Notes under the pieces: generated by a model
The model's input: only the letters and a program-made list of their open reading frames with translations
What the model was told of the DNA's origin: nothing
The model's database searches: none
NCBI GenBank assembly: GCA_035568735.1
Contig: DATMNS010000208.1
Span: 1 to 40,662 of the forward strand
Direction: 5' to 3'
DNA from: Chthoniobacterales bacterium
GTDB lineage: Bacteria; Verrucomicrobiota; Verrucomicrobiia; Chthoniobacterales; UBA10450
Length of the DNA stretch: 40,662 nucleotides
Shown: piece by piece, positions 2,490 to 40,662 of the stretch
How positions within the stretch are numbered: position 1 is the first letter of the stretch
How the letters are laid out: the number at the start of each line of letters is the position of its first letter
Translations under genes and position numbers: made by a program

Positions 2490-4076
2490 CTACATATCGC
2501 ACTCGCAGACAATCCGAAAGCCCAGGTCGTTGCACGAGTAATTGGGGGCGTTGGCACCCCGCGTGGTCGCGCGCAGGCTGTGGAAGCGTGATTTCCAGCT
2601 TCCGCCCCGGTAAATCCGCTTTGAACCTGAGACCGCTCCCCGGGGATTGATTTTTGGAGTTCCGCGATAGCCTTCCATGAAATCGAGGCACCATTCCCAG
2701 ACGTTCCCAGCCATGTCCTCTATCCCGAAAGGACTCGAACCCAAGGGATAGGCCCCGACTGGCGAGGTCTCGGCGTGGCCGTCGTCGATCTCGCGGTCGC
2801 TCCAGGCGAAAGTGGTGTTGCGATCGGCGAAATTCGCCAAGTTGCCCCTCCCTTCGTGGTTGCCCCATGGATATTTGCGACCGTCGCTGCCGCGAGCAGC
2901 GTATTCCCATTCAGCTTCCGTCGGCAGCCGGTAGCGGCGACGTTCCCGCACGCTAAGCCATTGGCAAAATTTCATCGCGTCGCCGCTGCTCACATAAACC
3001 ACCGGATGCCGGTCACCTGTGCGGGCCATACGTTTGCGCGCGTGACTCGGATCAAACATCTCGTATTGCGCGTTGGTGATGAGATGCCGGGAGAGATAAT
3101 AGCGGGTCAGCGTCACCTGCGTTATCGGGCGCTCGTTAGGCGCAGCATCGGCGGCTTCGCTGCCCATTTTGAAGACACCCGACGGCACAAGGAATATTTC
3201 AGCGCCGATCGTGTTAACGAAATTGGAATATTTGGCCCGCTCCGCGTTCGGATCGATGACGGCTGGCGCGGACAGAGTCGGCGCCGTTGAGGCCGGGACT
3301 GGCTCCGGTTTCGGAGCGACGACTCCCGGGACCGCCTTGGTCGCTGGCAAAGCGGCCTGCCCTTCGATTTCCTCGAGGTAACGATCGACCATGTCCTCGG
3401 CGTCGCCTGGTTCGATGCCGAGATTTTCCGCCATGTTCACGAAGGCGTCGCGTTGATCGTCCGTCATCTCATCGGAGCCCAGACCACTGAGCCGGAGCAT
3501 CCGCATAAAATCGTCTTCCGGATTGAGCGCCGGTCGATTGTTCCCTGCGGCCGCTGTTTCCTCCACCGAGGGCCGGCTGAGGCGCGCCCCACCGCAGGCG
3601 AGCAGCTCAGCCTCGATCAACTCCATCATGCGCTCGTCCGCCAGGTCCTGCTCCCGACCAAACTCCAACAAGGTTTGCTCTTCCTGCGGAGTGAGGGTCT
3701 TGTCATTCAGGGCAAAAGCCAAGTACTTGTTGAATTCGGTGATCGCCTGCTCTTGCGCCTGGGCAGCCAGTTCGTCATCCACCTTTTGCCGGCGCTCGGG
3801 GTTGAGCAACTCGACGCGGGCTTCCGTGAGGAAGCGCGATGAGTCTTCGAGCCCGGAGCGCAATAACTGCGCGAGCGGGTTGCTCGGTTGATTCTTAAGC
3901 GGCAGCTTCTTTTGCCACCACAGAACCAGATGGCGAAAGCGCTCTTCGATCAGCTCGTTGCTCGGATTGGTGCTCGGATCGAGGCAGAGCCGCTCGTACA
4001 AATCTGGCGAATCGTAACGGCTCCAGCCGTCCCACTTCCTCGGGTCATCCGGTAAAGGAATCGGGAAGCTGACCAT
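2490..4076 (-). CDS. J-domain-like (no HPD) N-terminus fused to a C-terminal FGE-sulfatase (SUMF1/EgtB/PvdO-type) domain
   Basis: 528 aa with ATG at 4076, 12 nt after the Hsp70 stop. The N-terminus DLYERLCLDPSTNPSNELIEERFRHLVLWWQKK resembles J-domain helices I-II but has no HPD. The C-terminus ...YRLPTEAEWEYAARG...WGN...NVWEWC...RGGSW...DLGFRIV is a typical FGE-sulfatase fold signature. Confidence 0.85.
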   Translation of the reverse strand: MVSFPIPLPDDPRKWDGWSRYDSPDLYERLCLDPSTNPSNELIEERFRHLVLWWQKKLPLKNQPSNPLAQLLRSGLEDSSRFLTEARVELLNPERRQKVDDELAAQAQEQAITEFNKYLAFALNDKTLTPQEEQTLLEFGREQDLADERMMELIEAELLACGGARLSRPSVEETAAAGNNRPALNPEDDFMRMLRLSGLGSDEMTDDQRDAFVNMAENLGIEPGDAEDMVDRYLEEIEGQAALPATKAVPGVVAPKPEPVPASTAPTLSAPAVIDPNAERAKYSNFVNTIGAEIFLVPSGVFKMGSEAADAAPNERPITQVTLTRYYLSRHLITNAQYEMFDPSHARKRMARTGDRHPVVYVSSGDAMKFCQWLSVRERRRYRLPTEAEWEYAARGSDGRKYPWGNHEGRGNLANFADRNTTFAWSDREIDDGHAETSPVGAYPLGSSPFGIEDMAGNVWEWCLDFMEGYRGTPKINPRGAVSGSKRIYRGGSWKSRFHSLRATTRGANAPNYSCNDLGFRIVCECDM

Positions 4077-4088
4077 CCGCGTGATCGC

Positions 4089-5774: not shown

Positions 5775-6458
5775 CTACTGGAATCGCTTGGCGATCACTT
5801 CCTCCGGACGAAGGATCCGATCGTGCCAGGTGAAGCCGGTCCTCACCCGCCTAACGATACGCCCATCTTCCTCAGGGCTTTCCGCCGCCTCATAACTGGT
5901 GACCCGATGGAGGGTCCGATCGACCGTCTCTTTTTGCTCGATTTCATTCACCTCGAGGCGATGCAGGATTTCGAGCAGAAAATGAAGGGTGTTTTTCAGG
6001 TTGTCATGTGACTGCCCGCTCCCGCCGCGCGCGTCGGTGCCCGGAGGACAGTCCCCGAACTGCCCGACGATCGCGCTGAGGTCATCGAACAAAATAAGGA
6101 GATCGCGAATGAACGGCTTCTGGAGGGATTCGCGGACGAAATTATCGCGGTAGCTGATAAGCTCTTTGTGCAGCGAATCGAACAACTTTTGATTAACCGT
6201 CTCGGTGTCCCGAATCGCGGCGAGCTGTTCCTCGAGTTTCTGGAATTGTAGCGCCTCCAATTTCCGCGAAAACGAGCCTTCCAGCACTTCGATCCGCCGA
6301 CTCAGGAATTGCACCGCGCGGGTCAGCTCCGAAATCTCGCCACCGGATGCGCTGGGGACCCGCGCGTCCTCCTGGGCCGACGGGGAGGTCGCGGCCTGCG
6401 CGCTCAACTGCTGCATCACGACCGCGAAGTCAGCCTCGATCTCAAATGCCTGGCTCAT
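5775..6458 (-). CDS. GrpE-like nucleotide exchange factor
   Basis: 227 aa with a coiled-coil N-half and a C-terminus ...HRVTSYEAAE..EDGRIVRRVRTGFTWHDRILRPEEVIAK that resembles the GrpE beta-domain. ATG at 6458 lies 7 nt after the cobA/hemD stop. Adjacent to the Hsp70 gene. Confidence 0.75.
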   Translation of the reverse strand: MSQAFEIEADFAVVMQQLSAQAATSPSAQEDARVPSASGGEISELTRAVQFLSRRIEVLEGSFSRKLEALQFQKLEEQLAAIRDTETVNQKLFDSLHKELISYRDNFVRESLQKPFIRDLLILFDDLSAIVGQFGDCPPGTDARGGSGQSHDNLKNTLHFLLEILHRLEVNEIEQKETVDRTLHRVTSYEAAESPEEDGRIVRRVRTGFTWHDRILRPEEVIAKRFQ

Positions 6459-6465: not shown

Positions 6466-7989
6466 TCAGTGCTTTTTGAAATAGCGGCAGATCGCCTCGG
6501 TCAGCCCGGGAATATCGTGGCGAGCGGCCTCCACCTCGACGGTCAGTCCGTGGTCGCTGGCGGTTTGCGATGTGATTGGACCGATGCTCGCAACCTGCAT
6601 CCCCTGTGGCCAGGGCAAACCAAGGGCGAGAAAGTTTTCGACCGTCGATGAGCTTGTAAAGGTGATCATATCCGCGCCTTCCGCCGCCAACCGCGATCGC
6701 GCTGCCGTCCGATCGCTCGTCTCCGGCACCGTTTTGTAGGTAAATGCAACATCGACGATGGCCCCCAGGGCGACGAGCTTCTTTGGTAGCAGGTCCCGCG
6801 CCTCTTCCGCCCGCGCGATCAGAATCCGAAAGTTTTCCATGTCGCCCTCCTTCTTGAATGCGGCCACCACCGCCTCGGCCACAAACTCCTCCGGTTGCAA
6901 ATCCACTTTCAAGTGAAACTCGCGCACCCGCTGTGCCGTTGCCGGCCCGATGGCCGCGATCCGCGCACCTCCGATTTCGCGCGCGTCGTCGTAGAGCTTG
7001 TAAAACATCTCGAAAAATGCGCTCACCCCATTCGCGCTCGTAAAGACGATCCAATCGTAGGAATGCGCATCCTGCACCAGTTCGGCGAAGCCGCGGAGGT
7101 CGCTCGGCGGATCGATGCGGATGGTCGGCAATTCGATCACCTCGGCCCCAAGATTGCGCAGACCCTTGCTCAACGCGCCGGCCTGTTTCCGGGTGCGCGT
7201 CACCACGATACGCTTCCCGGAAAGCGGCCGCTCCTCCTGCCACCGCAACTCTTTGCCCAACGAGACGACTTCGCCGAAAACGGCCACCCCTGGAGGCGCA
7301 AAGCCTTCCTCCGCCACCCGCTGGGCGATATTTTGCAGCGTACCGCGGACCACTTGCTGCCGGCCGGTTGTTCCCCAGCGCACGAGCGCGACCGGCATAT
7401 CCGGGCGAACACCGTGACTCATCATTTGTTGCGCGATACCTTCGATCCTCTCCACCCCCATCAGCATCACCTGGGTACCGCCGAGTTGCGCCAGCGCCGC
7501 GAAATCGATCGAGCTCTCCGATTTCTCCGGGTCTTCGTGGCCGGTGAAAAACGTCACGTGCGAAGCGAGCCCGCGATGCGTTACCGGGATGCCCGCGTAG
7601 GCCGGCGCCGCGATGGCGGAGGTGACTCCCGGGACGACTTCGAAAGGAATCGAGGCCGCCGCGAGGGCCTGCGCCTCTTCGCCGCCGCGGCCGAACAAGA
7701 AAGGATCGCCGCCTTTCAGCCTAACGACCTGCTTCCCGGCCCGCGCTTTTTCGACCAGCAGTTGGTTGATTTCATCCTGCTCCAGGGTGTGCGCGCCGGC
7801 CTGTTTTCCGGCGTAAATTATTTCCACCGCTTCCGGCGCCCACTGCAGCATCTCCGGGTTGCAGAGGTAATCGTAAACCACCACTTCCGCCCGCTCGATC
7901 ACTTCCCTGGCGCGCAAGGTGACCAGTCCCAGATCGCCCGGTCCCGCGCCGACCAGATAACACCGTCCCAGTTTTTTCTTATCCGCCAT
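6466..7989 (-). CDS. cobA/hemD: Uroporphyrinogen-III C-methyltransferase / uroporphyrinogen-III synthase fusion
   Basis: N-terminal YLVGAGPGDLGLVTLRA...VVRLKGGDPFLFGRGGEE is the SUMT signature. The C-terminal ~250 aa are HemD-like (RIVVTR...). 507 aa. Sits in a haem operon context. Confidence 0.9.
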   Translation of the reverse strand: MADKKKLGRCYLVGAGPGDLGLVTLRAREVIERAEVVVYDYLCNPEMLQWAPEAVEIIYAGKQAGAHTLEQDEINQLLVEKARAGKQVVRLKGGDPFLFGRGGEEAQALAAASIPFEVVPGVTSAIAAPAYAGIPVTHRGLASHVTFFTGHEDPEKSESSIDFAALAQLGGTQVMLMGVERIEGIAQQMMSHGVRPDMPVALVRWGTTGRQQVVRGTLQNIAQRVAEEGFAPPGVAVFGEVVSLGKELRWQEERPLSGKRIVVTRTRKQAGALSKGLRNLGAEVIELPTIRIDPPSDLRGFAELVQDAHSYDWIVFTSANGVSAFFEMFYKLYDDAREIGGARIAAIGPATAQRVREFHLKVDLQPEEFVAEAVVAAFKKEGDMENFRILIARAEEARDLLPKKLVALGAIVDVAFTYKTVPETSDRTAARSRLAAEGADMITFTSSSTVENFLALGLPWPQGMQVASIGPITSQTASDHGLTVEVEAARHDIPGLTEAICRYFKKH

Positions 7990-8884
7990 AAAGTTGCTTC
8001 ATTAGTTGGGCCGCGATCGCTTCCGGATCTGCGGCCGAACCGGTTGTCGTGCCAACGCGCGGCGCGGCCGTTTGCCCCTCAAAAATCTGCGCCCGCAATA
8101 CCAGTTCACCTTCGTTTAACAGCGCCTGAACACCCACCGGCGAATCGCAGTCGCCCCCGAGCAGGCGCAGGAATTCTCGCTCGGCCCGCAGGCAAGTGAG
8201 CGTCGCTCGATCGTTCACCGGGTCAATCCAACGCCGCGTCTTCGCATCGGCGCGCCGCACTTGCAGCGCGATCACGCCCTGACCGCCCGCCGGGACAAAA
8301 TCGTCCGGTGACAGAATTTCGCCCTGCACCGCGAGCCCGAGCCGCTCCAGACCGACCCGCGCCAGAATAACTCCGCTCCAGCTCTCGTTCTCGCGCAACT
8401 TGCGCAACCGGGTCGGTACGTTGCCGCGTAAATCGGCGGTTTGCAGGTCGGGCCGTTTCCAGACCAGTTGATGCTGACGCCGGACGCTGCCCGTGGCAAT
8501 CACGCTGCCCGCCGGAATGGTCGCCAGGCCATCTCCGGTTTTCGTGATCAGGACATCTTCCGCTGCGCCGCGGGGTGGCGTCGCCCCCAGTTCCAACTCC
8601 TCGCGCGGTTCGCTTGGCAAATCTTTCGCGCTATGCACCGCGACGTCGATTCGCCTAACGAGAAGGGCCTGCTCGATCTCACGCGTAAACATTCCTTTGC
8701 GCCCGGCTTTGCGGTCCGCCAACAATTCGGTTTTCGGCTCCTCGTCGCCTCTGGTCCGGATCACCTCGATCGCTACTTCCAGTTCGGGCCAGGCGGCCTG
8801 CAATGCCCGCTCCACCAGACGCGTTTGCGCCAGCGCGAGATCGCTGCCGCGCGACCCGAGGATTATCCTGCCCGGCGCGCCCAC
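7979..8884 (-). CDS. hemC: Hydroxymethylbilane synthase (porphobilinogen deaminase)
   Basis: ILGSRGSDLALAQT...RGNVPTRLRKL... are typical HemC motifs. GTG start immediately follows the hemA stop (TGAGTG). 11-nt overlap with the cobA/hemD start. Confidence 0.9.
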   Translation of the reverse strand: MGAPGRIILGSRGSDLALAQTRLVERALQAAWPELEVAIEVIRTRGDEEPKTELLADRKAGRKGMFTREIEQALLVRRIDVAVHSAKDLPSEPREELELGATPPRGAAEDVLITKTGDGLATIPAGSVIATGSVRRQHQLVWKRPDLQTADLRGNVPTRLRKLRENESWSGVILARVGLERLGLAVQGEILSPDDFVPAGGQGVIALQVRRADAKTRRWIDPVNDRATLTCLRAEREFLRLLGGDCDSPVGVQALLNEGELVLRAQIFEGQTAAPRVGTTTGSAADPEAIAAQLMKQLYGG

Positions 8885-9952: not shown

Positions 9953-10740
9953 AGTGTATGGGTTGACGAAAGGAACGTAATACCCCAGAGCAACGTCAGC
10001 GCGGCGCTGAAGGCCACGACGCAGAGCGCCGCGATCCGGCGCGGGGCGGTCGTGCCCAAGTGGCGCGCGAGCAGGATGGCGGCGTAAAAAATCCACACGC
10101 CTAACGACCAGGCGATCTTGACGTAAGGCAATGGCTGACCGGTGAAGAATCCGGCCGCGATGCCCACCGTCAGCAAAATGAACCCGAGCCAGAGAAGCCG
10201 GGTGATCGCGGCGAAGAGATCAGTGAGCGGCGGGAAATGATAAAACATCGAATGGAGCTGACGCGTCTTGAGCTGACGCTCTTGCAGCAAATACATCAGC
10301 CCCGCAACGCAGGCGAGCGCGAACGCGCCGTAGGCGATGAGAGAAACCGAGGCATGCAATTCCAGGCACGGCGTGGGCGCGACCGGCATTGGATGCGGGC
10401 GGTCAATCGGCACGAGGAGAGCAAACGCTTGCAAGCCGAAGACCAGCGGCGCGGTGAAAGCGCCCATCAGCGAAAGCCGGTAAGCCGGCCCGATGAGCAG
10501 GTAAATGACTGAAACGGACCAGGCCAGAAAGACGAAAACCTCGAAGAGATTGGTCAATGGACAGCGCCCGAGAGCGTGTCCGCGCACCGAAAGAAAAGCC
10601 GTCTGAAAGACGAAGCCGAGCGCGATCGCGAAGAAGTTGAAACCGACCGCGTGATAGGTCCGCGCTTTGATCGCGACCGCGGTCCGCACCATTGCGAAAA
10701 AGAAACACAGGGTTGAGACGATGAGCAGAGTGCGATCCAT
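9949..10740 (-). CDS. CcsA-like cytochrome c assembly family membrane protein (HemX-type, as in hemAXCD operons)
   Basis: Only the last 263 codons of the 573-aa ORF look real. They start at MDRTLLIVSTLCFFF (ATG 10740) and contain about 8 TM helices. Position directly upstream of hemA matches the HemX/CcsA-like gene of hemAXCD operons. Confidence 0.8.
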   Translation of the reverse strand: MDRTLLIVSTLCFFFAMVRTAVAIKARTYHAVGFNFFAIALGFVFQTAFLSVRGHALGRCPLTNLFEVFVFLAWSVSVIYLLIGPAYRLSLMGAFTAPLVFGLQAFALLVPIDRPHPMPVAPTPCLELHASVSLIAYGAFALACVAGLMYLLQERQLKTRQLHSMFYHFPPLTDLFAAITRLLWLGFILLTVGIAAGFFTGQPLPYVKIAWSLGVWIFYAAILLARHLGTTAPRRIAALCVVAFSAALTLLWGITFLSSTHTL

Positions 10741-11241: not shown

Positions 11242-11247
11242 GCCGAG

Positions 11248-11794: not shown

Positions 11795-12226
11795 TCAGCC
11801 GCAGGCGCAGCCGGCGCCGCAGCGGCCGCTGCGATCTTCCACGATCACTTCCACCTGGATCTCCTGCAGCGCGAGCTGATCGTGGATCGCGTTGAGCAGG
11901 TCGAGCGCGCGGCCTAACGGCATCTCCGCGCAGCGCAGCTCGATCCGCGCATTCTTGTCCGACAGCTCGGGGTGCGCTTCGGCCAGTTCGCCGTCGAGCA
12001 AGAACGAAACGTAGGCGTTGAACTTTTCCTGGAGCTGAAAAAGCTGCTCATCGGAGCCATCCCACGGGCGCGGCTCGAACATCACGAGGAGCACTTCGTC
12101 GGTCTTCGCCTCGTGCGCGAAGAAATCGATGACCCCGGTCTGCTCGAGGCCGCCAGGTGGAGCGGCGGCCGGGTCGGCCGCAGGCCCGGAAGACATCTCA
12201 GGCTCCGTTTCAGATTTCTCTCCCAT
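11795..12226 (-). CDS. Hypothetical acidic protein with a Cys/Gly C-terminal tail (…RSGRCGAGCACG)
   Basis: The ORF is open to a TTG at 12265. ATG candidates are at 12226 (MGEKSE…) and 12196 (MSSGPAADP…). The latter has GGAG 6 nt upstream. No family confidently recognised. Confidence 0.6.
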   Translation of the reverse strand: MGEKSETEPEMSSGPAADPAAAPPGGLEQTGVIDFFAHEAKTDEVLLVMFEPRPWDGSDEQLFQLQEKFNAYVSFLLDGELAEAHPELSDKNARIELRCAEMPLGRALDLLNAIHDQLALQEIQVEVIVEDRSGRCGAGCACG

Positions 12227-13216: not shown

Positions 13217-13639
13217 GTGGCGAAGAAGACGGTTAACAAACGACTCACCCTCCTCGGTCGGAGCGAGACCCGGATCCCGGCTGCTCCTTCCGCCGCAACC
13301 CTCGAGACCTTTGCGAATCCCGCGCGCCGGCCCTATTGGATCCGGTTTCACTCCGCGGATTTCACCTCGCTCTGTCCCATCACCGGTCAGGCGGATTTCG
13401 CGACGATCACGATCGACTACCTGCCCGGCGCCCGCTGCCTCGAAACCAAATCGCTTAAGTTCTATCTTGCCTCCTATCGCAACGAGCGGGCTTTCAACGA
13501 AAGCGTCGCGAACCGCATTCTGGACGATCTCGTTAGGGCGTGCGCGCCGCGGAAGATGACCATCGAAGCCGAATTCGCCGCCCGCGGCGGCATCACGCTC
13601 ACCATCACCGCCAGTCACCCGGACGTGTCCGCGCGATGA
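13217..13639 (+). CDS. queF: NADPH-dependent 7-cyano-7-deazaguanine (preQ0) reductase
   Basis: …LETFANP…[20 protein letters not shown]…[14 protein letters not shown]… are QueF type I motifs, including the catalytic Cys. GTG start. Confidence 0.9.
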
Positions 13640-14319
13640 AGCGCGCCGTCGTGCTGCTTAGCGGCGGCCTCGACTCGGCCACCGTGCTCGCGCTTTGCCG
13701 CGCCGAAAACTACGCGGCCTACGCGCTTTCTTTTCGCTATGGCCAGCGCCACGAGCGCGAAATCGCGGCCGCCAGGCGCATCGCAAAATCGTTAGGCACA
13801 ACGGAGCATCGCATCGCCGAGATCGATCTGCGGCTGTTCGGCGGATCCGCCCTGACGGCTGACCTGGCCGTGCCGAAAGCGCGCTCCGAAGTAGAAATGG
13901 CCGCGGGCGTCCCAATCACCTACGTGCCGGCCCGGAACACCATCTTCCTCTCCTACGCGCTGGCCTGGGCCGAAGTGCTCGGCGCGACGGATATTTATCT
14001 CGGCGTGAACGCAGTCGATTACAGCGGGTATCCCGATTGCCGGCCGGAGTTCATCCGCGCGTTTGAACGACTGGCGAATCTTGCCACCCGCGCCGGCGTC
14101 GAGGGCGCGCGCTTCGAGATTCACGCCCCGCTCCTCGCTCTTTCCAAGGCGCAGATCATTCAACGCGGGTCGGAACTCGGGGTCGACTTTTCTCTCACGC
14201 ATAGCTGTTACGACCCGACTCCGGACGGTCTCGCCTGCGGGGAATGCGATTCCTGCCAGCTCCGGCGCCGAGGCTTTCGCGAAGCCGGCCGGGAAGATTC
14301 GATTCGTTACGCACGATGA
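13636..14319 (+). CDS. queC: 7-cyano-7-deazaguanine synthase
   Basis: [17 protein letters not shown] is a PP-loop. The C-terminal Zn cysteines are present (SCYD…CGECDSC). The ATG overlaps the queF stop (ATGA). Confidence 0.95.
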
Positions 14320-14516
14320 ACCTGCGCGCCAGGCTCGGCATGTTCGTCCTCACCCGCCAGGAACAGCGCGCGATTGCATTCATCGTGCTCATGCTGGTGC
14401 TCGGCCTGGCGACCAGGCATTATCGTCACAGGCATCCGAAATCCGCGAACTCGCCTAACGAAACAGTCCGGGCGGTGCCGACGCCGACGCTGGCGCCGGC
14501 CAAAAACCCGCCGTAA
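14316..14516 (+). CDS. Small hypothetical membrane protein (66 aa)
   Basis: The ATG overlaps the queC stop (ATGA), suggesting translational coupling. One TM helix, [15 protein letters not shown]. No family recognised. Confidence 0.45.
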
Positions 14517-14552: not shown

Positions 14553-15653
14553 CTACAGCCCGGGGATGCGGCCGTAGCCGACGAATCGCGGCTGGCCCTG
14601 AGAGGAAGGCCCATCTTTCGAGGGCGCCGTTTTGAAATCGAACACGCTCACACCAAAACGCTCTTTCCCGTGAAAGGTCCGACCATCGCTCGCTCCGATC
14701 ATGATTGGTTTTCCCGATTCCTTTTCCCTGCCGAGGTAAATCATGGTGTGCGTGACTGGCGGATCGCGCTCCACGCTGTAGGTGCCGGTCCAGAAAAGCA
14801 GATCGCCCGGCTTGAGTTCGTCGAGTTCGAAGGAATCGAGATCACGGCTCAGAACGGCGCGGAAATTCCCCGCTTTGCGGACCCAGACATATTGTTCGCT
14901 GGCATCCCGCGGGACGTCGGGCACACCGTTTTCGCGCAAGAGGTAGTAGATGAATCCGGAGCAATCCATCCCGCCGCCCGCGGGATCGGCGGAGCCGTAG
15001 AGGTAGCCGAGGTTGCGCTTCGTTAGGTCGAGCGCGTCCCCGAGTAGTTTCTGCACGGCTGCAGGATTCTTGTCGTAACCTTCAATCTCGTCCGGCGAGA
15101 CCGCGGCGACCCGCTTCTCCGGGCTGGGTGATTCTTCGGGTTTTGGCGTGGGTGTTTTTCTCGGACTGGGCGAGGCGCTCGGGGACGGACTCGGCGAGGG
15201 TTTTTTGCGTTTCGGTTTGGGCGTTTCCTCTTCGTCGGGAGTGGGCGTGGGTGTTTTTCTCGGACTGGGTGAAGCGCTCGGGGACGGACTCGGCGAGGGG
15301 TTTTTTCGTTTTGGTTTGGGCGTTTCCTCTTCTTCGGGAGTGGGCGTGGGAAAACTCTTGTGTAGGCGCTTCGCGGTCGATTTTGGAGCAGCGCTGGGGG
15401 ACGGCGACGGTGTCGGACTGCTCTTCTTGGTCACGCGCTTGTGCGGCCGATGGCTCGGCGTCGGGGTCGGCGTCGCGAGGAATTTCCTAATCTTCGCGCC
15501 TAACGAAGGTTCTTCCGCGCCCACCCCTTGCGTCGGCCCGAGAGAGATAAGAAGAAGGAGGGTGATCGCTCCGACGTCCAGCCGATTCGTTAGGCGAAGA
15601 ATCACGCGCCGATTGTTCCTTGTCATGCCGGGCGAAGTAGAGGGATTTCGCAT
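14553..15653 (-). CDS. NlpC/P60 (C40) family cell-wall peptidase with a Pro/Ser/Thr/Lys-rich repeat linker
   Basis: The C-terminal domain has …GGMDCSGFIYYLL…HTMIYLG… (Cys/His catalytic motifs). There is an N-terminal signal/TM segment. An alternative ATG lies at 15626. Confidence 0.85.
   Translation of the reverse strand: MRNPSTSPGMTRNNRRVILRLTNRLDVGAITLLLLISLGPTQGVGAEEPSLGAKIRKFLATPTPTPSHRPHKRVTKKSSPTPSPSPSAAPKSTAKRLHKSFPTPTPEEEETPKPKRKNPSPSPSPSASPSPRKTPTPTPDEEETPKPKRKKPSPSPSPSASPSPRKTPTPKPEESPSPEKRVAAVSPDEIEGYDKNPAAVQKLLGDALDLTKRNLGYLYGSADPAGGGMDCSGFIYYLLRENGVPDVPRDASEQYVWVRKAGNFRAVLSRDLDSFELDELKPGDLLFWTGTYSVERDPPVTHTMIYLGREKESGKPIMIGASDGRTFHGKERFGVSVFDFKTAPSKDGPSSQGQPRFVGYGRIPGL
15145..15352. 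repeat. Tandem 99-bp direct repeat (about 2.1 copies) inside the NlpC/P60 gene
   Basis: Unit ggcgtgggtgtttttctcggactggg… starts at 15145 and again at 15244, with a partial third copy from 15343. The few mismatches are in-frame (33 aa: TPTP.EEETPKPKRK.PSPSPSPSASPSPRK). Confidence 0.85.
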
Positions 15654-22278: not shown

Positions 22279-22328
22279 GCAGGTAGCTCTGCGGCACACG
22301 GGATATGCAGAATGCCGGTCCGCCGGAG

Positions 22329-24254: not shown

Positions 24255-24557
24255 ATGGAGCCTAACGAAAAACGCGGATACGTCATCGTCGAGATAGAAG
24301 TGACCGATCCTGCGCGCTACGAAGAATATCGGCGCCAGGCCGAGGCCACCGTGGTTTCCCAAGGCGGAAAATATGTCGTCCGCGGCGGCGGCCTGCAGAC
24401 ATTGGAGGGCGACTGGCAGCCGAAACGACTGGTCGTGCTCGAGTTTCCGAGTGTCGCGCAAGCGCGCGCCTGGTGGAGTTGCGAAGAATACCGCGCGCCC
24501 AAGAAGATCCGGCAACAGTCGGCCGTCACTCGGATGATTCTGGTGGAAGGCGTCTGA
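24255..24557 (+). CDS. DUF1330 domain protein
   Basis: 100 aa. YVIVEIEVTDPARYEEYRRQA…GGKYVVRGG…LEGDW.P.RLVVLEFPS…A..WW.S.EY matches my recollection of the DUF1330 pattern. Confidence 0.8.
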   Translation: MEPNEKRGYVIVEIEVTDPARYEEYRRQAEATVVSQGGKYVVRGGGLQTLEGDWQPKRLVVLEFPSVAQARAWWSCEEYRAPKKIRQQSAVTRMILVEGV

Positions 24558-27384: not shown

Positions 27385-27412
27385 CAGCCTGGCAGCCTAA
27401 CGACGAACGCCC

Positions 27413-28273: not shown

Positions 28274-29125
28274 GTGAAAATCGGCGTGCGCTACGAAACT
28301 GCCTACCGCTATACCGCCCCGGTCAGTTTTATGACCCACGAAATCCGGCTTTTCCCCCGCATCGACGTCTTCACCCGGATGCACCGAATGAAGTTTGAGA
28401 CGAACGCTGGTGCGGATGTGCGTTTTGGGCGCGACGTTTTCGACAATTGCGTCGCCGCCTGTTCCTTTGCCGCGCCAGCGACGGAGCTGCGTTTTCAACT
28501 TGAGCTCGATTTGGAGTTGTTGGAAAAAAATCCGTTCGATTTCCTGCTCACGACCGACGCCCTCACTCTGCCTTTCTCCTACCCATCCGAGTTGCATAGG
28601 GTACTCGCTCCCTTCCGGGAAAGCGACGCCGGTCGGTTGCTCGAAATTCCGCGCTGGGAGCGGCCGCAGACTGGCGCACCCCGGCCGACCGTCGCGACCC
28701 TCGTCGAGCTGAATGAAAGGCTGCACGAAGGTGTCGGCTACGAGCGGCGCGAAGAAGGACCGGCGCGTCTTCCGGCAGAGACCCTGCGCATCGGGCGCGG
28801 CGCCTGCCGCGATGTCGCGCTTCTGCTCGCCGCGATCCTTCGTCAATGCGGGCTGGCCGCTCGCCTAACGAGCGGATATTTACGTGAAGCGGAATCGGAT
28901 TTGCGCCGCGCGGAAGGGTCCCTGCATGCCTGGACCGAAGTTTACCTGCCTGGGGCGGGCTGGGTGGGGATGGATCCGACCAACGGTGTTTTCGCCAACC
29001 ATAATTTCATCCCGGCCGCGGTTGGAATCACCCCCGGCGACGTTACGCCGATCGACGGCAGCTTTTTCCCGCGACAGGCAGGCAGTGCGCAAATGACGAG
29101 CCGGCTGGAACTGCTCAGCCTCTAA
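28274..29125 (+). CDS. Transglutaminase-like cysteine protease family protein (Bact_transglu_N + core)
   Basis: MKIGVRYETAYRYTAPV… is the N-terminal domain. The catalytic triad context is present: GACRDVA…, HAWTEVY…, GMDPTNG. Confidence 0.85.
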   Translation: MKIGVRYETAYRYTAPVSFMTHEIRLFPRIDVFTRMHRMKFETNAGADVRFGRDVFDNCVAACSFAAPATELRFQLELDLELLEKNPFDFLLTTDALTLPFSYPSELHRVLAPFRESDAGRLLEIPRWERPQTGAPRPTVATLVELNERLHEGVGYERREEGPARLPAETLRIGRGACRDVALLLAAILRQCGLAARLTSGYLREAESDLRRAEGSLHAWTEVYLPGAGWVGMDPTNGVFANHNFIPAAVGITPGDVTPIDGSFFPRQAGSAQMTSRLELLSL

Positions 29126-29136: not shown

Positions 29137-30192
29137 ATGCTTCGCGATCTGCAACTGCGCGATTTCCGCTGCTTCGCGGCGATCGCCGTTGAATTCTCTC
29201 CAGGCTTCAATTTCATTGTGGGCGCGAACGGCCAGGGGAAAACGACATTGCTCGAGGCCGCCTGCGTCCTCCTGCGTTTGCAATCGCAACGCTCCTCGAG
29301 CCTCGCGCCCACGGTGCGGGCCGGAGGGCGCTCGTTTATTGTCTCCGGCCACGCCGGGGAACACCTATTGCAATTTTATTACAGCGCGCTGCGGCGGAAA
29401 GTGGCCTTCGATGGCGTCGAACAGCACGATCAGGCGGAGTATTTGCGCCTTTTCAGGGTGGTTTCCTTCGCCAGTCACGACCTCGAATTGATCCGCGGCC
29501 CGGGCGAAATGCGACGACGCTATCTGGACTTTATCGGAACGCAGACGGAAGCACGTTACCGGCCGGTTTTGCGCGCCTACGAGCGGGCGCTCCGATCGCG
29601 GAATGTGCTCTTGAAATCGCCGCACGCGCGACCGCGAGAACTGGCGGCCTATACCGAGCCCCTGGTGCGGGCAGGAACCTCGTTGCGCGAGATGCGGGCG
29701 ACACTCGTTAGGCGGTTGGCCCCTTGCGCGGAAATCAGCCACCGCGCGATCAGTGGCGGCCACGAAAACCTCTCGCTCGAATACGCGCCGGGCAGCGAAG
29801 AGGATTTCGCCGCGCAACTCGCGCGAACGCGGACGGAGGAAGGGCGCCTCCGGCTCACGATCGTCGGGCCACATCGCGACGATTTGCGCCTGCAGGTCGA
29901 AGCCATGCCTGCCGCGCACTTTGCTTCCGAGGGTCAACAGCGCACCATCGCGCTCGCCTTGAAGCTGGCCCAGGCGCAGGTTTTCGCCGAGGACGCAGCC
30001 ACCCCGCCGCTCCTCCTGGTCGACGACATCTTTGGCGAGCTGGATGCCGCGCGGCGCAACGCTCTGCTCGCCCATTTGCCTAACGAGTCGCAAAAATTAG
30101 TGACGGCGACCGCGCTCGATTGGCGCGCGGGCGATTGGGCGGGACCGGTTTTGGAACTGGCCGACGGCCAGATTCGCCGGCGCGACAAGTAA
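29137..30192 (+). CDS. recF: DNA replication and repair protein RecF
   Basis: MLRDLQLRDFRCF… with Walker A GANGQGKTTLLEA, …SEGQQRT.ALALKLA… and LLLVDDIFGELD. Confidence 0.95.
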   Translation: MLRDLQLRDFRCFAAIAVEFSPGFNFIVGANGQGKTTLLEAACVLLRLQSQRSSSLAPTVRAGGRSFIVSGHAGEHLLQFYYSALRRKVAFDGVEQHDQAEYLRLFRVVSFASHDLELIRGPGEMRRRYLDFIGTQTEARYRPVLRAYERALRSRNVLLKSPHARPRELAAYTEPLVRAGTSLREMRATLVRRLAPCAEISHRAISGGHENLSLEYAPGSEEDFAAQLARTRTEEGRLRLTIVGPHRDDLRLQVEAMPAAHFASEGQQRTIALALKLAQAQVFAEDAATPPLLLVDDIFGELDAARRNALLAHLPNESQKLVTATALDWRAGDWAGPVLELADGQIRRRDK

Positions 30193-32378: not shown

Positions 32379-32916
32379 CCCCGGCCTAGCTTCAAAGGCA
32401 GAATCTTTCTGCGGGCCTTTGCCCGGAGGAAGATTTTTGCGGTACGCGAGATGCGCTGGTCGGCCAATCTGAGTGGCTGCCGGGACCGCTCCCATGTTTC
32501 GCCACGGAAGAGGCTGGCGGCAATCTCATCCGAAATGACCGGTTTGCTCAACAAAGCCTTGGCTACTAGCCACGCCATTTCAGACTGAAGGGTTGAGGTT
32601 AAACCATTCGCTAGTTCACAGCATAAGCGATCGTGCTGAGGAGCGCTGCTCCGTCGGCGAGGTCGAGGCGTGTGTCTCGCACGACCCGTGTCGCGTGGGA
32701 TCTCAAACGAGCGCGAAAATCCAAACCGCCCAGATAATTTCTGGGAACCGCTCGACGCCGAGTAGGATCACGATGCGCACGGACCCTTCGATCCGCCCGC
32801 GCGCCAGCGGAGTCCGCAGTTGTGGCGCCACGACCCATCGGCGCTGGCTTGCCGCCGGGTTGCTCGCCGGCGTGGTGCCCGCACTTTTTGGCCGGTGCGC
32901 TTTTCGTTAGGCCGTC

Positions 32917-34773
32917 TCAGAGACGCGATTCGCCCTCACGACAAAGGCGGAGCGCGCTGTTCACGAGGGCAACGTGCGAAAAAGCTTGCGGAAAATTTCC
33001 CAGCAGCCGTTTTTTGCGGGGCGTGTATTCCTCGGAGAGGAGCCCGAGGTCATTCCGCAAATCAAGCAGGCGCTCGAAGAGCAGGCGCGCGTCTTTGCCG
33101 CGCCCGGTGAGGTAATAGCAATCGACCAGCCAGAAAGAACAGGGAAGAAAAACACCCTCCGGGCCGGGTAAGCCGTCGACTTTCTCTTCGCCCGGCCGAT
33201 AGCGCAGGACGAGTCCGTTCTCGAGCAGCTCGCGCTCGACCGCCACGATGGTTCCAAGCACCCGCTCATCGTTAGGCGGAAGAAAGCCGACCAACGGAAG
33301 CATGAGGATGCTCGCGTCCATCACGTCGGCCCCGTAGGACTGCGTGAACGCGTTCTTTTTCTTGTTGTAACCGAAGCGGCAAACCGAACGATGGATTTTA
33401 TCGCGCAATTTCCTCCAGCGTTCGAGGCTCTGGCCAGGCGCGCAGTGATACTGCTCGACGAGTTTCACCGCGCGATCGAATGCGACCCAGGCCATGACTT
33501 TGGAATGGGTGAATTGCCGGCGCGGGCCGCGCACTTCCCAAATGCCTTCATCGGGCTCGTGCCACTTTGTTTCGAGAAAGCGCAGCAGTGCCACCTGTAA
33601 GCGCCAGTCGGCCTCGTTCATCTCCAGCCCACAGCGGTGCGCTTGAAACATCGCGTCGACGACTTCGCCAAAAACGTCGAGCTGAAATTGGCCCGAAGCC
33701 GCGTTGCCAACGCGGACGGGCCGGGATTTTTCGTAGCCGTCCAGCCACGGCAGTTCGTATTCGTCGAGCCGCCGCTCTCCGCGCACCCCGTACATGATTT
33801 GTAACTGGGCGGGACTGCCAGCGATGGCGCGCAGAAGCCATTCGCGCCATGCTTTTGCTTCTTCTTCGTAGCCAGCGCCGAGCAGTGCGGTGAGGGTAAA
33901 AGTCGCGTCCCGCAGCCAACAATAGCGGTAGTCCCAATTGCGCACGCCGCCGATTTTTTCCGGCAACGAGGTAGTAAGCGCGGCGACAATGCCGCCCGTC
34001 GGCGCGTAGGTGAGACCTTTCAGCGTAATGAGCGAGCGCATGACTGCGTCTCGCCACCGACCGGATCGCCCGTAGCGCTCGGCCCATTGCAGCCAGTAGA
34101 TTTCCGTTTCCTGAAGGGCATGCCCTGGATCCACTTCCTTGGGCGGAAGTTCGTGGGACGCATACCAGGTAAGGACAAACGGCACGCAGTCGCCTTGCGC
34201 GACGGTGAATTTTGCCACCGTCTTGAGGTCTTGGCCACGCGTCGGGATGGGCGTGCGCAAAATCAGCGCATCAGGCCCCGCGACCGCTTCGAGGCCGCCA
34301 TGCCGCTGCCGCACCCAGGGTACGATGGAGCCATAGTCGAAACGAATGATCAACTCCATGTTAATCGTCACTCTCCCCTTCAGCCCCTCGATGATGCGGA
34401 CGATGTCGGGATTCGTCCCGCGCGGCGGCATGAAATCGATGAAACGGACCGCGCCTTCCGCTGTCTCCACCTCGGTCTCCAGAATCAAACTGTCCCCACG
34501 ATAACGCCGTGCGCACTTCTTGATTCTGCCCTTCGGCTTGAATTGCCAGCAGCCGTTTTCTTTTTTGCCTAACAAAGCCGCAAAACAGGCGCCGGAATCA
34601 AAACGGGGCAGGCAAAGCCAGTCGACCGAGCCGTCGCGACTAACGAGTGCGCCACTCTGTGTATCGCTAAGGAAAGCGTAGTCCTCGATCGACGGGTTGA
34701 TCTTTCTTTTCCTCCTCTTCATCGAGGGTGCGATCGGGAAGTTTTGAACGGCGCTCCCCAAAACACGCGTCAT
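32917..34773 (-). CDS. Glycoside hydrolase family 15 (glucoamylase/trehalase-like)
   Basis: …IEDYAFLSDTQSGALVSRDGSVDWLCLPRFDS… and …NWDYRYCWLRDA… are GH15 signatures. The start may be the ATG at 34773 or at 34722 (MKRRKRK…). Confidence 0.85.
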   Translation of the reverse strand: MTRVLGSAVQNFPIAPSMKRRKRKINPSIEDYAFLSDTQSGALVSRDGSVDWLCLPRFDSGACFAALLGKKENGCWQFKPKGRIKKCARRYRGDSLILETEVETAEGAVRFIDFMPPRGTNPDIVRIIEGLKGRVTINMELIIRFDYGSIVPWVRQRHGGLEAVAGPDALILRTPIPTRGQDLKTVAKFTVAQGDCVPFVLTWYASHELPPKEVDPGHALQETEIYWLQWAERYGRSGRWRDAVMRSLITLKGLTYAPTGGIVAALTTSLPEKIGGVRNWDYRYCWLRDATFTLTALLGAGYEEEAKAWREWLLRAIAGSPAQLQIMYGVRGERRLDEYELPWLDGYEKSRPVRVGNAASGQFQLDVFGEVVDAMFQAHRCGLEMNEADWRLQVALLRFLETKWHEPDEGIWEVRGPRRQFTHSKVMAWVAFDRAVKLVEQYHCAPGQSLERWRKLRDKIHRSVCRFGYNKKKNAFTQSYGADVMDASILMLPLVGFLPPNDERVLGTIVAVERELLENGLVLRYRPGEEKVDGLPGPEGVFLPCSFWLVDCYYLTGRGKDARLLFERLLDLRNDLGLLSEEYTPRKKRLLGNFPQAFSHVALVNSALRLCREGESRL

Positions 34774-34799: not shown

Positions 34800-35318
34800 T
34801 CACTCGCAAACTACGCCGCCCGGCTCCTGCGCGAGCTGCGCGATTCCGTCGCGCGTGAGACGAAAAATCGTCCACTCCTCGTTCGGCCTGGCCCCCAGCT
34901 TGCGGTAAAACTGGATGGCCGGCTCATTCCAATCGAGCACCGCCCATTCCATTCGCCCGCACCCGCGCTCGCGGGCGATTCGCGCGAGGCGCACCAGCAG
35001 GGCGCGGCCGTAACCTCTGCCACGGACTTCCGGCCTAACGAAAAGATCCTCGAGATAAAGTCCGCGTCGCCCCAGCCAGGTGGAGAAATTGTGAAAGAAA
35101 AGCGCGAAGCACACCGGCACGCCGCCCTCCTCACCAAGTAACACTTCCGCCGCCGGATGCGCGCCGAAGAGCGCTTCCTCCAGGGCCGCTTCCGTCGCCA
35201 CCACATCCTGCGGCGCGCGCTCGTATTCGGCCAGCTCGCGGATCAGGGCCAGGATGGCCGGCACGTCCGCGCGCGCGGAAAGGCGAATCGAGAAATCGGA
35301 TTTCTTGATCCCAGACAC
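34800..35318 (-). CDS. GNAT family N-acetyltransferase
   Basis: …LFVRPEVRGRGYGRALL… is the acetyl-CoA motif. The long ORF start (35453) overlaps the topoisomerase gene, so I chose the in-frame GTG at 35318 (VSGIKKSDFSIRLSARADV…). That start is uncertain. Confidence 0.7.
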   Translation of the reverse strand: MSGIKKSDFSIRLSARADVPAILALIRELAEYERAPQDVVATEAALEEALFGAHPAAEVLLGEEGGVPVCFALFFHNFSTWLGRRGLYLEDLFVRPEVRGRGYGRALLVRLARIARERGCGRMEWAVLDWNEPAIQFYRKLGARPNEEWTIFRLTRDGIAQLAQEPGGVVCE

Positions 35319-35370: not shown

Positions 35371-36495
35371 TCACGGCCAGGCTTCAGCTTTTTTCGCCAG
35401 CTTCTCCTGGAGAAAGGCGAGCACTGCGGCCTCCTCCGCCCGCAAGTCGCCAAACGAATCTGCGAGCGTCTCCTCGCGGCGTTTCCGCAGGCCCGCGATC
35501 AAGTTACCGTCCAGATAGGTTTCCAACACCGCGGGGTGAACGTAACACTTGCGGCAGACCGCCGGGGTGTTGCCGAGCACCCTCGCGACCGCCCCGATCG
35601 CATTCTTGATGTTTTTCTTCGCTTGCGATTTGTTCTCGAAGGGCTCCTGGGCCTGCAGAACCGTCGCGGCCATGATCGTGCCGGCCCACGTGCGAAAATC
35701 CTTCGCGGTAAACTCTTCGCCGGTCGTCTCGCGCAGGTATTGGTTCACTTCGTCGGAGGTCACCTGATGCTGTCCCCCCTTGGCGTCGAGACACTGGAAG
35801 ATTTCCTGGCCGGGCAATTCCTGCAGTTTTTTGATGATCCGGGCCACGCGCCGGTCTTCAGTGTCGATGTCGTGCGCCTGGCCGCTCTTGCCGCGGAACC
35901 GAAAGCGGACCTTCGCTCCCTTCACCTCGACATGGCGATTCCGCATTGTCGTTAGGCCAAACGATTTGTTTTCCTTTGCGTATGCTTCATTCCCAATACG
36001 GATCAGGCTCCTTTCGAGGAGCTGGACCACGGTCGCGAGGACTTTTTCCCGCGGGAGTCCGCGTCGCTTCAGGTCGCGATTGATTCGTCGCCGGATCCCG
36101 GGCAGCGCCTGACCGAAAACGATCATCTTTTCGTATTTGTTCTCGTCGCGCTCTTCGCGCCAACGGTCGTGATAACGGTATTGTTTGCGCCCGCGCTCGT
36201 CGCGGCCGGTCGCCTGGAGGTGGCCATTCGGCGATGGACATATCCAGACGTCCGTGTAGGCGGGCGGAATCGCGAGTCGATTCAGACGCATGACGCGCGC
36301 TTCGTCGTGGATCTCTCTTCCCTCGGTATCGAAGTAGAGAAACGTCCGGCCCCGGCGTCGCCGCGTGTAACCGGGACTTTCATCGCTCACGTAACGCAGC
36401 CCGGCCTCCTCCGCCGCTTCTTGCGGGTCGGTGATAATCTCGAGGCTGGCGATTTTTTTCCTTTCCTGGGACAGCTTGCGAGCAGTGGTGGACAC
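35371..36495 (-). CDS. DNA topoisomerase IB (bacterial, poxvirus-like)
   Basis: …LRYVSDESPGYTRRR…IPPAYTDVWI…GRD.RGRKQYRYH..W……FRF.GKSG………KDFRTW.GT……CRKCYVHP (candidate catalytic Tyr). GTG start. 374 aa. Confidence 0.9.
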   Translation of the reverse strand: MSTTARKLSQERKKIASLEIITDPQEAAEEAGLRYVSDESPGYTRRRRGRTFLYFDTEGREIHDEARVMRLNRLAIPPAYTDVWICPSPNGHLQATGRDERGRKQYRYHDRWREERDENKYEKMIVFGQALPGIRRRINRDLKRRGLPREKVLATVVQLLERSLIRIGNEAYAKENKSFGLTTMRNRHVEVKGAKVRFRFRGKSGQAHDIDTEDRRVARIIKKLQELPGQEIFQCLDAKGGQHQVTSDEVNQYLRETTGEEFTAKDFRTWAGTIMAATVLQAQEPFENKSQAKKNIKNAIGAVARVLGNTPAVCRKCYVHPAVLETYLDGNLIAGLRKRREETLADSFGDLRAEEAAVLAFLQEKLAKKAEAWP

Positions 36496-39488: not shown

Positions 39489-39525
39489 AATGAGTAGTGA
39501 GGTTGAGGAGTTAGGTTAGCAACGG

Positions 39526-40662
39526 TTAAATGTGGGACGCTGGCCTCACCGTAGCGAGAGCGTAAGGTTGTTGAAAATATTTTGCTGCCACCCTTTGCAC
39601 GTCGTCTGGCGTGACCAGCCCGACCTCGTCTTCCAGCTTCCGGTAGTGGTCAAAACCGAGGCCATAGAGCTCGTCGAGCGCCACCATGTAAGCGAAGGAG
39701 TCGTTGCTTTGGTTGGCAATTCGTTGCTGGCCGATGAGCTTTTTCTTCGCCCGCGTCAACTCTTCGTTCGTTAGGCCGGCAGCGGCCAGCTTTCCAATCT
39801 CATCGAGAAGCGCGGCCGTGACCGGCTTGAGCTTGGCGGGGTCCGTCCCGAGATAAAAGGCGAACAACCCCGGAACCAGTCCCTGCATCTGGCTTGTGCC
39901 CACGTAATAGGCCAGCCCCATCTCCTCGCGGATGCGGACGAAAAAGCGCGATCCGAGATCGCTGCTCGCTTCGTCGATCAGCTCCAGCGCGTAGCGATCC
40001 GGGCTAAACAGGCCGGCGCCACGGTACCCGACCATCAGGACGCCCTGAGCCTTCTCTTTCACTTCCTCGACCGCGATCGTCTTCGCGAGCCGGGGCGGTG
40101 ACGGCGCGTCGGTCAGGGCGAGTTCACCCGCAGGCATCGCGCTGAGTATTTGCTCGAAAAGTTGCTTCACCTCAGCGGCCTTCACACTGCCGAAAACAGA
40201 GATGACGCCATTCTTCGCCACGAGATAACGCGTGCGGAAAGCGAGCAGATCCTTCTGCGTAAGCTGTGCGACTGCTTCCGGTGTCCCTTTCGCCCGCAGG
40301 GCGTAGGGATGCTGGCCGAAAAGCGCGGCCCGCAGGATGTTGCGCGCGACCGTTGTCAGCTGTTCTTCGTCATCGCGGAGACCGGCGAGCTGCACTTCCT
40401 TTTCCCGGGCGACGGCTTTTTCGGGCATCGTGGCGTTGAGCAAAATGTCGCCAAGCACCTCCGCGCCGAGTCGCAGATCGGGTTTGGTGACCTCAAGCGA
40501 AATGTTGAAGCTGTTATTGCCCGCATCGCTCCCGAGGGTGCCGCCGACGGCCTCGATCGTGTCGGCAATCTGCTCGGCGGTGCGGGTTTTGGTTCCCTTC
40601 ACCAACACCTTGGCCATCAAGCGGGTCAGGCCGCTGGTCGCCCGCGTCTCGGCGAGCAAACC
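39526..40662 (-). CDS. M16 family (insulinase/pitrilysin-like) peptidase; N-terminus outside the window
   Basis: The frame is open to the window edge, so the listed TTG start is internal. This is the typical M16 C-terminal inactive-half architecture (…LGSRFFVRIREEMGLAYYVG…). The HxxEH region would lie beyond 40662. Confidence 0.85.
   Translation of the reverse strand, partial: GLLAETRATSGLTRLMAKVLVKGTKTRTAEQIADTIEAVGGTLGSDAGNNSFNISLEVTKPDLRLGAEVLGDILLNATMPEKAVAREKEVQLAGLRDDEEQLTTVARNILRAALFGQHPYALRAKGTPEAVAQLTQKDLLAFRTRYLVAKNGVISVFGSVKAAEVKQLFEQILSAMPAGELALTDAPSPPRLAKTIAVEEVKEKAQGVLMVGYRGAGLFSPDRYALELIDEASSDLGSRFFVRIREEMGLAYYVGTSQMQGLVPGLFAFYLGTDPAKLKPVTAALLDEIGKLAAAGLTNEELTRAKKKLIGQQRIANQSNDSFAYMVALDELYGLGFDHYRKLEDEVGLVTPDDVQRVAAKYFQQPYALATVRPASHI

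Follow-up and report, generated by a model that had tools for sequence, protein, structure and literature searches.

What kind of process would write the same asymmetric nine-letter word again and again into unrelated genes of a soil bacterium? The question arises from contig DATMNS010000208.1, a 40,662-bp stretch (the window, i.e., the whole stretch analyzed) of an uncultured Chthoniobacterales soil bacterium whose RecF protein is also encoded on soil-metagenome contigs. The window holds 28 exact copies of GCCTAACGA, 13 on the plus strand and 15 as the reverse complement; the latter reads TCGTTAGGC, and the word is thus nonpalindromic. An original prediction, drawn from the letters of the window, had proposed a genome-wide DNA signal and, as its preferred candidate, a DNA uptake sequence. 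The case for a genome-wide, orientation-independent signal at the level of DNA is now much stronger than it was in that prediction. As to its nature, we see roughly even chances that GCCTAACGA is a lineage-specific DNA uptake (self-recognition) sequence of uncultured Chthoniobacterales.

RESULTS

Excess of the word in the window

The recount returned the very 28 positions, and the 13:15 split, from which the original prediction had started. Dinucleotide-preserving shuffles of the window (n = 100) contained 0.29 ± 0.54 copies and at most 2, in agreement with the roughly 0.3 copies first estimated, and the excess is therefore ~100-fold. Markov models of order 1 to 3 predict 0.2 to 0.5 copies. 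GCCTAACGA is the commonest 9-mer of the window, its sub-words are two of the three commonest 8-mers, and it takes up 0.6% of the DNA. One-mismatch variants total 19 against ~7.3 expected and include all those listed in the prediction, each where it had been placed. The flanks of the 28 copies are nearly free of information (C at −1 in 14 of the 28, weakly A-rich at +1 to +3), and the earlier statement that no extended flank is conserved thus holds.

A codon-shuffled null, which the prediction had proposed as a check, leaves this excess in place. When synonymous codons were shuffled within each of 32 genes, 0.51 ± 0.67 copies (maximum 4) were expected inside genes, where 24 are observed, a codon-aware excess of ~47-fold. 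The word contains TAA on one strand and TAG on the other, which leaves four stop-free frames, and the window uses all four about equally (PN[E/D] 7, LT 5, SLG 6, and VR 7). Moreover, six of its nine SLG peptides and five of its six PN[E/D] peptides are spelled by the word despite the rare codons TTA, CTA, and AGG. The codon-shuffle excess and the rare-codon spelling together indicate that the signal resides in DNA rather than in proteins or codon usage. A codon or peptide artifact is ruled out by the shuffle (0.5 versus 24) and by the use of four frames on both strands. A further count, of copies that supply stop codons, was dropped because antisense open reading frames (ORFs) in GC-rich DNA inflated it.

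Recurrence of the word across Chthoniobacterales and soil metagenomes

Species-representative genomes were scanned with the SMC protein of the window, which yielded 80 loci at SMC identities from 93% down to 55%, all in metagenome-assembled genomes (MAGs) labeled Chthoniobacterales, Spartobacteria, or Verrucomicrobiota. The loci were pooled into four groups, and their 9-mers were scored against an order-3 Markov model. GCCTAACGA was the most over-represented 9-mer in each of the four, at 35 to 75 times expectation in the three groups outside the window's clade, and it is still the top word even in the motif-poor sister lineages. Its counts were as follows:

Window's clade: 598 observed, 10 expected
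Intermediate clades: 169 observed, 2.2 expected
Motif-poor clade: 51 observed, 1.4 expected
Udaeobacter-like clade: 46 observed, 1.1 expected

With the motif masked during model training, the expectation for the window's clade (638 kb) falls to 3.3, i.e., a ~180-fold excess. In this clade, the word is the top 9-mer of nearly every locus, at 0.27 to 2.15 copies per kb, and it takes up 1.9% of the DNA of one locus, L035. Density differs about tenfold or more between related species, with zero copies in four sampled loci (L045, L053, L057, and L058).

Soil metagenomes were scanned for two direct copies of GCCTAACGA 61 to 91 bp apart, and at least 120 loci matched. Among the matches listed, 38 loci are rich in the motif; they span 204 kb and stem from many soil samples. 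Of these 38, 33 are dissimilar to the window and to the SMC loci. Beyond the pair that found them, those 33 loci carry 0.74 copies per kb. The genes on the motif-rich metagenome loci are diverse (MacB/FtsX, FtsK, Ser/Thr kinases, and PilT), and the MAGs and contigs in which the motif turned up were produced by many laboratories with several assemblers. Judged from these loci and contigs, the enrichment is genome-wide and lineage-wide. The claim of a genome-wide signal, originally made from a single window, thus extends to 33 unrelated contigs and to the loci of 80 species; confinement of the excess to the window, which the prediction had named as a refuting outcome, is not what was found.

In the motif-poor clade, two further words stand out in a subset of loci (within L039 to L077). 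TGTGGGTGA, found in 18 of 20 loci, has 29 copies where 1.0 is expected, and GAGGTCCCT/AGGGACCTC occurs about 36 times against 1.5 expected.

Orientation and spacing of the copies

Across ~863 copies, the two orientations stand at 404:460, and the heterogeneity among loci is that of chance (chi-square of 34.9 with 35 degrees of freedom, p = 0.47); no strand skew beyond chance was found in the 35 loci of 13 to 41 kb in which it was sought. The GC skew of the window is monotonic, which places it in a single replichore, yet the motif divides 13:15. Relative to the coding strand, the window's clade has 234 sense and 253 antisense copies. Adjacent copies are direct, convergent, and divergent in a ratio of 394:197:196. 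Binned at 2 kb, the copies follow a Poisson-like distribution (index of dispersion, 1.02; random placement, 1.00), with no bias toward promoters, gene ends, or particular loci. The absence of skew, combined with random spacing, excludes both signals of the Chi/KOPS type and periodic architectural sites.

Origin by substitution and conservation as DNA

Gain and loss of copies were followed by aligning the smc codons of 34 species. Eighteen columns of this alignment hold the motif in one species or more; two of them are old (24 and 27 species) and the others lineage-specific. Each gain is a set of substitutions, with no insertion or deletion at the 18 aligned gain sites. Some gains replace otherwise invariant residues, as in L035, where KTVCRLKD became KTVVRLKD, and clustered multi-base changes generate new copies in the same locus. 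An origin as a mobile element or by insertion is rejected on account of the missing conserved flanks and of the absence of indels at gain sites; together with the lack of pairing, these findings bear out the earlier exclusion of mobile elements, of repetitive extragenic palindromes (REP) and miniature inverted-repeat transposable elements (MITE), and of CRISPR repeats. All of the latter are extended, palindromic or arrayed, mainly intergenic, and gained by insertion, and GCCTAACGA shows none of these traits.

Once gained, copies persist far more often than random 9-mers in the same alignments:

Window versus L003: 18 of 19 motif copies conserved; random 9-mers, 44%
Window versus L005: 13 of 17 motif copies conserved; random 9-mers, 12%
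Window versus L014: 10 of 17 motif copies conserved; random 9-mers, 11%

The oldest site found in smc (20417..20425) keeps the peptide L-V-R almost everywhere. Motif-rich lineages encode it as CTC-GTT-AGG-C, and motif-poor lineages write V-R with the common codons GTC/GTG-CGG/CGT. Similarly, 22 of the clade's 27 species keep the copy that spans the smc stop codon, its two noncoding bases included, although the spacer beyond it is unalignable. The word is thus maintained as DNA in some lineages and relaxed in others.

Directly after the old smc copy, at positions 20426-20434 of the window, the codons CAC/CAT TTG TTA (in the window itself, CAC TTA TTA) hardly vary in nucleotide sequence across the clade, rare Leu codons notwithstanding. 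The conserved DNA element may thus exceed 9 nucleotides at this site.

Strict and loose positions of the word

The one-off variants of the word, 27 in number, add up to 447 copies in the window's clade, where 112 are expected. Their enrichment is concentrated in CCCTAACGA, the commonest (105 copies, 60 times expectation), GCCTAACGG (51 copies, 19 times expectation), GCCTGACGA, GCCTAACAA, ACCTAACGA, and GACTAACGA. At positions 4, 6, and 7 (T, A, and C), variants are just as frequent as expected, which indicates that the center of the word is strict and its ends are looser. In L008, copies with C at position 1 are as many as those with G. Sister clades favor the 3′ extension GCCTAACGA-G-T-(G), i.e., GCCTAACGAGT, and a weak 5′ yTC flank is present in all clades. 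The C-first form and the extension in sister clades resemble dialect-like variation.

Three other words of motif-poor sister lineages were considered as alternative dialect words and rejected. TCATCCCGA, in motif-poor sisters, is part of a ~155-bp inverted-repeat MITE; AATGACGAA is a local tandem array; and AAGATCGACA is mostly K-I-D codons in one frame. The last of these occurs 63 times against 3.7 expected (~17-fold) in Udaeobacter-like loci (L064, L070, L072, L075, and others). Of its 45 coding copies, 34 spell K-I-D in a single sense frame, which suggests an effect of peptides or codons more than a signal in the DNA itself. A MITE-like element with inverted TGTCATCCCGAGCCGCGCAGACG copies ~155 bp apart occurs four to six times per 24 kb in L043, L047, and L053 (in L043, for example, at 2795/2952, 6942/7097, and 13859/14015). 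Finally, arrays of the heptamer AATGACG/AATGTCG, in both orientations, occupy a similar site downstream of smc in three species (L036, 9591-9760; L066, 14994-15111; L082, 9131-9258); they are not a dispersed motif and may be a binding-site array.

Placement of the copies in genes

Pfam scans of its ORFs identify the window as an ordinary housekeeping region, with genes for SecDF, an Hsp70/GrpE pair, HemA/C/D, QueF/QueC, SMC, RecF, alanine dehydrogenase, topoisomerase IB, and peptidases. Twenty-four of the 28 copies lie inside 18 Pfam-supported or long genes; of the remaining four, one is in a 90-amino-acid ORF without a family match, one crosses the smc stop codon, and two are in spacers. Twelve copies are sense and 13 antisense with respect to the coding strand. 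The 19 genes, two spacers, and 14:12 division given originally were thus near the mark, though inexact. Across the window and the clade, 81 to 86% of copies are intragenic. The exact copies of GCCTAACGA in the window are as follows, with the strand of the copy after its coordinates:

3133..3141, minus: FGE-sulfatase-like gene (2490-4076, minus), sense, A-P-N-E
5849..5857, plus: grpE (5775-6458, minus), coding strand TCGTTAGGC, I-V-R-R
7719..7727, plus: cobA/hemD (6466-7989, minus), coding strand TCGTTAGGC, V-V-R-L
8653..8661, plus: hemC (7979-8884, minus), L-V-R-R
10099..10107, plus: cytochrome c assembly (CcsA-like) gene (9949-11670, minus), S-L-G
13789..13797, minus: queC (13540-14319, plus), S-L-G
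14453..14461, plus: 90-amino-acid ORF (14244-14516) without a family match; may instead be the queC-nlpC spacer
15498..15506, plus: NlpC/P60 gene (14553-15653, minus), S-L-G
15587..15595, minus: NlpC/P60 gene (14553-15653, minus), sense, R-L-T-N
15798..15806, minus: M20 peptidase gene (15716-17092, minus), sense, S-P-N-E
17675..17683, minus: amino acid permease gene (16990-18453, plus), F-V-R-Q
19828..19836, minus: smc (18565-22278, plus), S-L-G; old site, 24 of 34 aligned species
20417..20425, minus: smc, L-V-R-H; oldest site found, 27 of 34 species, including other clades
22272..22280, minus: spans the smc stop codon (TAG 22276-22278, then noncoding GC)
24260..24268, plus: codons 2 to 5 of a DUF1330 gene (24255-24557, plus), E-P-N-E
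25139..25147, minus: 941-amino-acid gene without a family match (24559-27384, minus), sense, L-P-N-E
25690..25698, plus: 941-amino-acid gene (24559-27384, minus), S-L-G
26086..26094, plus: 941-amino-acid gene (24559-27384, minus), S-L-G
26772..26780, minus: 941-amino-acid gene (24559-27384, minus), sense, R-L-T-I
27395..27403, plus: 28-bp spacer between the start of the 941-amino-acid gene and the stop of a DUF4230 gene
28863..28871, plus: transglutaminase-like gene (28274-29125, plus), R-L-T-S
29705..29713, minus: recF (29137-30192, plus), L-V-R-R
30078..30086, plus: recF (29137-30192, plus), L-P-N-E
32904..32912, minus: noncoding, just downstream of the GH15 gene stop
33269..33277, minus: GH15 glucoamylase-like gene (32917-34773, minus), sense, P-P-N-D
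35033..35041, plus: GNAT acetyltransferase gene (34800-35453, minus), F-V-R-P
35949..35957, minus: topoisomerase IB gene (35371-36495, minus), sense, G-L-T-T
39768..39776, minus: M16 peptidase gene (39526-40662, minus), sense, G-L-T-N

Two variants recur in the window:

13530..13538, minus: variant CCCTAACGA; other copies at 22472 (plus), 23700 (minus), and 24741 (plus)
11912..11920, plus: variant GCCTAACGG; other copies at 12781, 18657, and 23407 (all plus)

DISCUSSION

A candidate uptake sequence

An exact, nonpalindromic, unskewed 9-mer that occurs about once per kb, lies mostly within genes and there in stop-free frames, arises by substitution, is conserved across species, and is common, with small variants, to a group of family-to-order level matches the description of a DNA uptake sequence. 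To our knowledge, uptake sequences are the only known mechanism that gives such a pattern for a nonpalindromic word. In the proposed mechanism, the transformation machinery would include a receptor, surface exposed or periplasmic and probably part of a type IV pilus, that binds the word in double-stranded DNA whichever way it points. Cells would favor fragments with the word for uptake, and recombination would then bring these into the chromosome. Such a bias in uptake would amount to a molecular drive, whereby point substitutions create copies where the protein tolerates them and the copies are then kept. In the densest lineage, the motif has displaced conserved residues, which is easier to reconcile with such a drive than with selection for a function of the organism. 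Reading of the word during uptake, the existence of a receptor, and competence of the bacteria are all things we infer from the pattern of the word.

Both known classes of uptake word invite comparison. Sequence-specific self-recognition in DNA uptake has been described in only two proteobacterial families, and their DNA uptake sequences (DUS) and uptake signal sequences (USS) occupy up to ~2% of DNA (bioRxiv 10.1101/2025.10.24.684340), in line with a motif load of GCCTAACGA that ranges from the value for the window to that for L035. The Pasteurellaceae USS (core AAGTGCGGT), for which the minor pilin ComN is the predicted receptor (PMC12616744), resembles GCCTAACGA in several respects: a nonpalindromic 9-nucleotide core at about one per kb in both orientations; a mostly intragenic location in stop-avoiding frames that yield few recurrent peptides; and a family-level group with variants, an origin by substitution, and positions conserved between species. 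It differs in phylum and in sequence, and GCCTAACGA lacks the AT-rich, helically phased flank of the USS, with only a weak yTC...(G)T around it. The Neisseriaceae DUS (GCCGTCTGAA and its dialects, with ComP as receptor) shares with GCCTAACGA the extreme enrichment, the absence of strand polarity, the lineage dialects, a share of up to about 2% of the DNA, and conserved positions in core genes. GCCTAACGA is unrelated in sequence to either GCCGTCTGAA or AAGTGCGGT; it would thus be an independent member of the functional class of uptake words, belonging to neither known sequence family.

We found no precedent in the literature. Full-text searches with the word on either strand matched only primers and unrelated constructs, and searches on uptake sequences or competence in Verrucomicrobia, Chthoniobacter, Udaeobacter, or Spartobacteria gave no account of such a word. 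The author of the original prediction had likewise been aware of no such signal in a genome of the Planctomycetes-Verrucomicrobia-Chlamydiae kind.

The prediction had also pointed to competence genes as a place to look. We scanned the long or membrane ORFs of motif-rich loci, a small sample rather than a genome-wide one. A motif-rich metagenome contig (L198; seven copies in 5.8 kb) carries a gene for a type IVa pilus retraction ATPase of the PilT/PilU family at 1561-2712 on the minus strand (TIGR01420, 346 bits at a cut-off of 319), and L017 encodes a prepilin-type protein. In addition, ComEC is listed in soil Verrucomicrobia populations that show recombination (PMC7305173). The ATPase, the prepilin, and the published ComEC make weak evidence of machinery for uptake. 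On L198, a 1.9-kb segment beside the ATPase gene (2823-4702) is 76% identical to the SMC neighborhood of L065.

Uptake as originally proposed fits every statistical feature tested, and several observations weigh against it. ComEC, ComEA, and a secretin were not found in the ~2 Mb sampled with regular expressions and Pfam scans, and we know of no naturally transformable member of the phylum. About half of DUS and USS lie in predicted terminators, unlike GCCTAACGA: the DUS is often found as intergenic inverted repeats in terminators, and GCCTAACGA is mostly intragenic; nor are the terminator inverted pairs of the USS seen for it. A preferred hairpin spacing or inverted terminator pairs were sought among adjacent copies, and none was seen. 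Furthermore, enrichment and conservation alone cannot separate a drive by uptake from selection for another DNA-binding function.

A further observation of this kind comes from a phage. A Mu-like temperate phage contig (L224, 1-18081; IMGVR_UViG_3300037261_000237; also L085), which encodes a TniB/MuB-like ATPase, Mu Gp27, terminase, portal, holin, and repressor, carries 17 copies of GCCTAACGA. At 0.94 per kb, this is the density of the host. The Neisseria DUS, by contrast, is reported to be absent from recently acquired genes (bioRxiv 10.1101/2025.10.24.684340). Either the phage is a long-term resident, or the word accumulates in any DNA that lives in these cells; the latter would favor a binding or self-mark function, or conversion, over uptake. 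IMG/VR was scanned both for motif pairs and for relatives of the terminase, and all matches but the one Mu-like phage were at chance level; a phage with a 38%-identical terminase has zero copies.

Two side observations concern viral DNA. The orientation of the motif on L224 switches near 7 kb (six of seven copies on the minus strand in the left arm, nine of 10 on the plus strand in the right arm), a pattern that host loci do not show. Two unrelated viral contigs of IMG/VR (L090, 43-136; L101, 495-588) contain the word six times at exact 17-bp intervals, in tandem repeats that include it by chance and do not represent the dispersed motif.

Alternatives to uptake

One possible alternative, listed in the original prediction as well and distinctly less probable than uptake, is that an abundant chromosomal protein with no part in uptake binds GCCTAACGA sequence-specifically. 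The word would then be, e.g., an orientation-independent self mark serving recombination, repair, or defense, or the site of a nucleoid protein, with selection acting on site density. The strong conservation and the turnover of copies at the DNA level fit any selected site, and a resident Mu-like phage at host density is expected if the mark protects or benefits resident DNA. The known nucleoid proteins, however, have degenerate sites, and the known self marks, such as Chi, are polar. The copies of GCCTAACGA are spaced at random rather than regularly, with no preference for promoters, gene ends, or loci. Moreover, the wide range of density between relatives, down to zero in four sampled loci, is easier to explain by a drive than by an essential architectural function.

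A reading of the same modest likelihood takes the word as the read-out of an orientation-independent, genome-wide process other than uptake, in which it would be a self mark or conversion target on any resident DNA, including the Mu-like phage. If so, it would represent a new class of bacterial chromosome signal, with a density dialed up or down between sister species.

Somewhat more doubtful is a by-product of sequence-specific modification or repair bias, of the kind suspected for HIP1 (GCGATCGC), a cyanobacterial palindrome that occurs roughly once per kb within genes, lineage-wide, and whose function is unproven. Short-patch repair linked to a methyltransferase or nickase would convert near-matches in any DNA that replicates in the cell. 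This would account for the nearly all-or-none pattern (598 perfect copies versus 447 one-off copies spread over 27 variants), for the motif in a resident phage, and for the clustered multi-base changes that make copies in L035. HIP1 is, like GCCTAACGA, a short, exact, dispersed word of similar density, shared across a lineage; it differs in being palindromic and linked to methyltransferase sites, whereas GCCTAACGA is asymmetric. A fully specified nonpalindromic 9-mer is also unlike the known methylase sites tied to short-patch repair, none of the near-match variants is depleted in the way that a substrate of repair would be (the lowest are about at expectation), and a ~180-fold excess goes far beyond the known effects of very-short-patch repair.

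A polar chromosome signal, whether of the Chi (RecBCD/AddAB) or of the FtsK-orienting (KOPS/AIMS) type, is very improbable. Such signals are, like GCCTAACGA, short over-represented chromosomal words, and theirs are read by DNA-processing machines; one motif-rich contig does encode an FtsK with a gamma domain, and the motif flips orientation between the arms of the phage contig. Chi and KOPS/AIMS are strongly skewed to the leading strand and only few-fold enriched, whereas GCCTAACGA is more than 50-fold enriched and unskewed in 35 loci, including a 13:15 split in a single-replichore window. The strand-skew check that the original prediction had named as the way to recognize a Chi/KOPS signal therefore gives it no support. 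Least probable of all, and refuted by the tests made, is that there is no signal and that the repetition stems from biased codons or peptides, from a mobile element (REP/MITE) that left its footprint, or from faulty assembly. Only the repetition itself speaks for this, against the codon shuffle, the use of four frames on both strands, the lack of conserved flanks and of indels at gain sites, the many laboratories and several assemblers involved, and the quite different look of the true MITE and tandem repeats of sister lineages.

Implications

Even without a role in uptake, some mechanism must lie behind a 9-mer that fills as much as 2% of the DNA at the expense of codon preference and, at times, of conserved protein residues. 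The motif can serve as a cheap barcode to assign contigs, prophages, and extracellular DNA to the lineage, as a bait for its receptor, and as a candidate handle for transforming these organisms. Soil Verrucomicrobia recombine frequently (PMC7305173). The word makes directly testable how soil bacteria recombine and whether uptake-word systems exist beyond two proteobacterial families. If GCCTAACGA is indeed an uptake sequence, self-recognition in DNA uptake would operate in a group that ranks among the most abundant of soil bacteria and among the least cultivated, and Verrucomicrobiota would provide a third, unrelated example showing that this strategy has evolved repeatedly.

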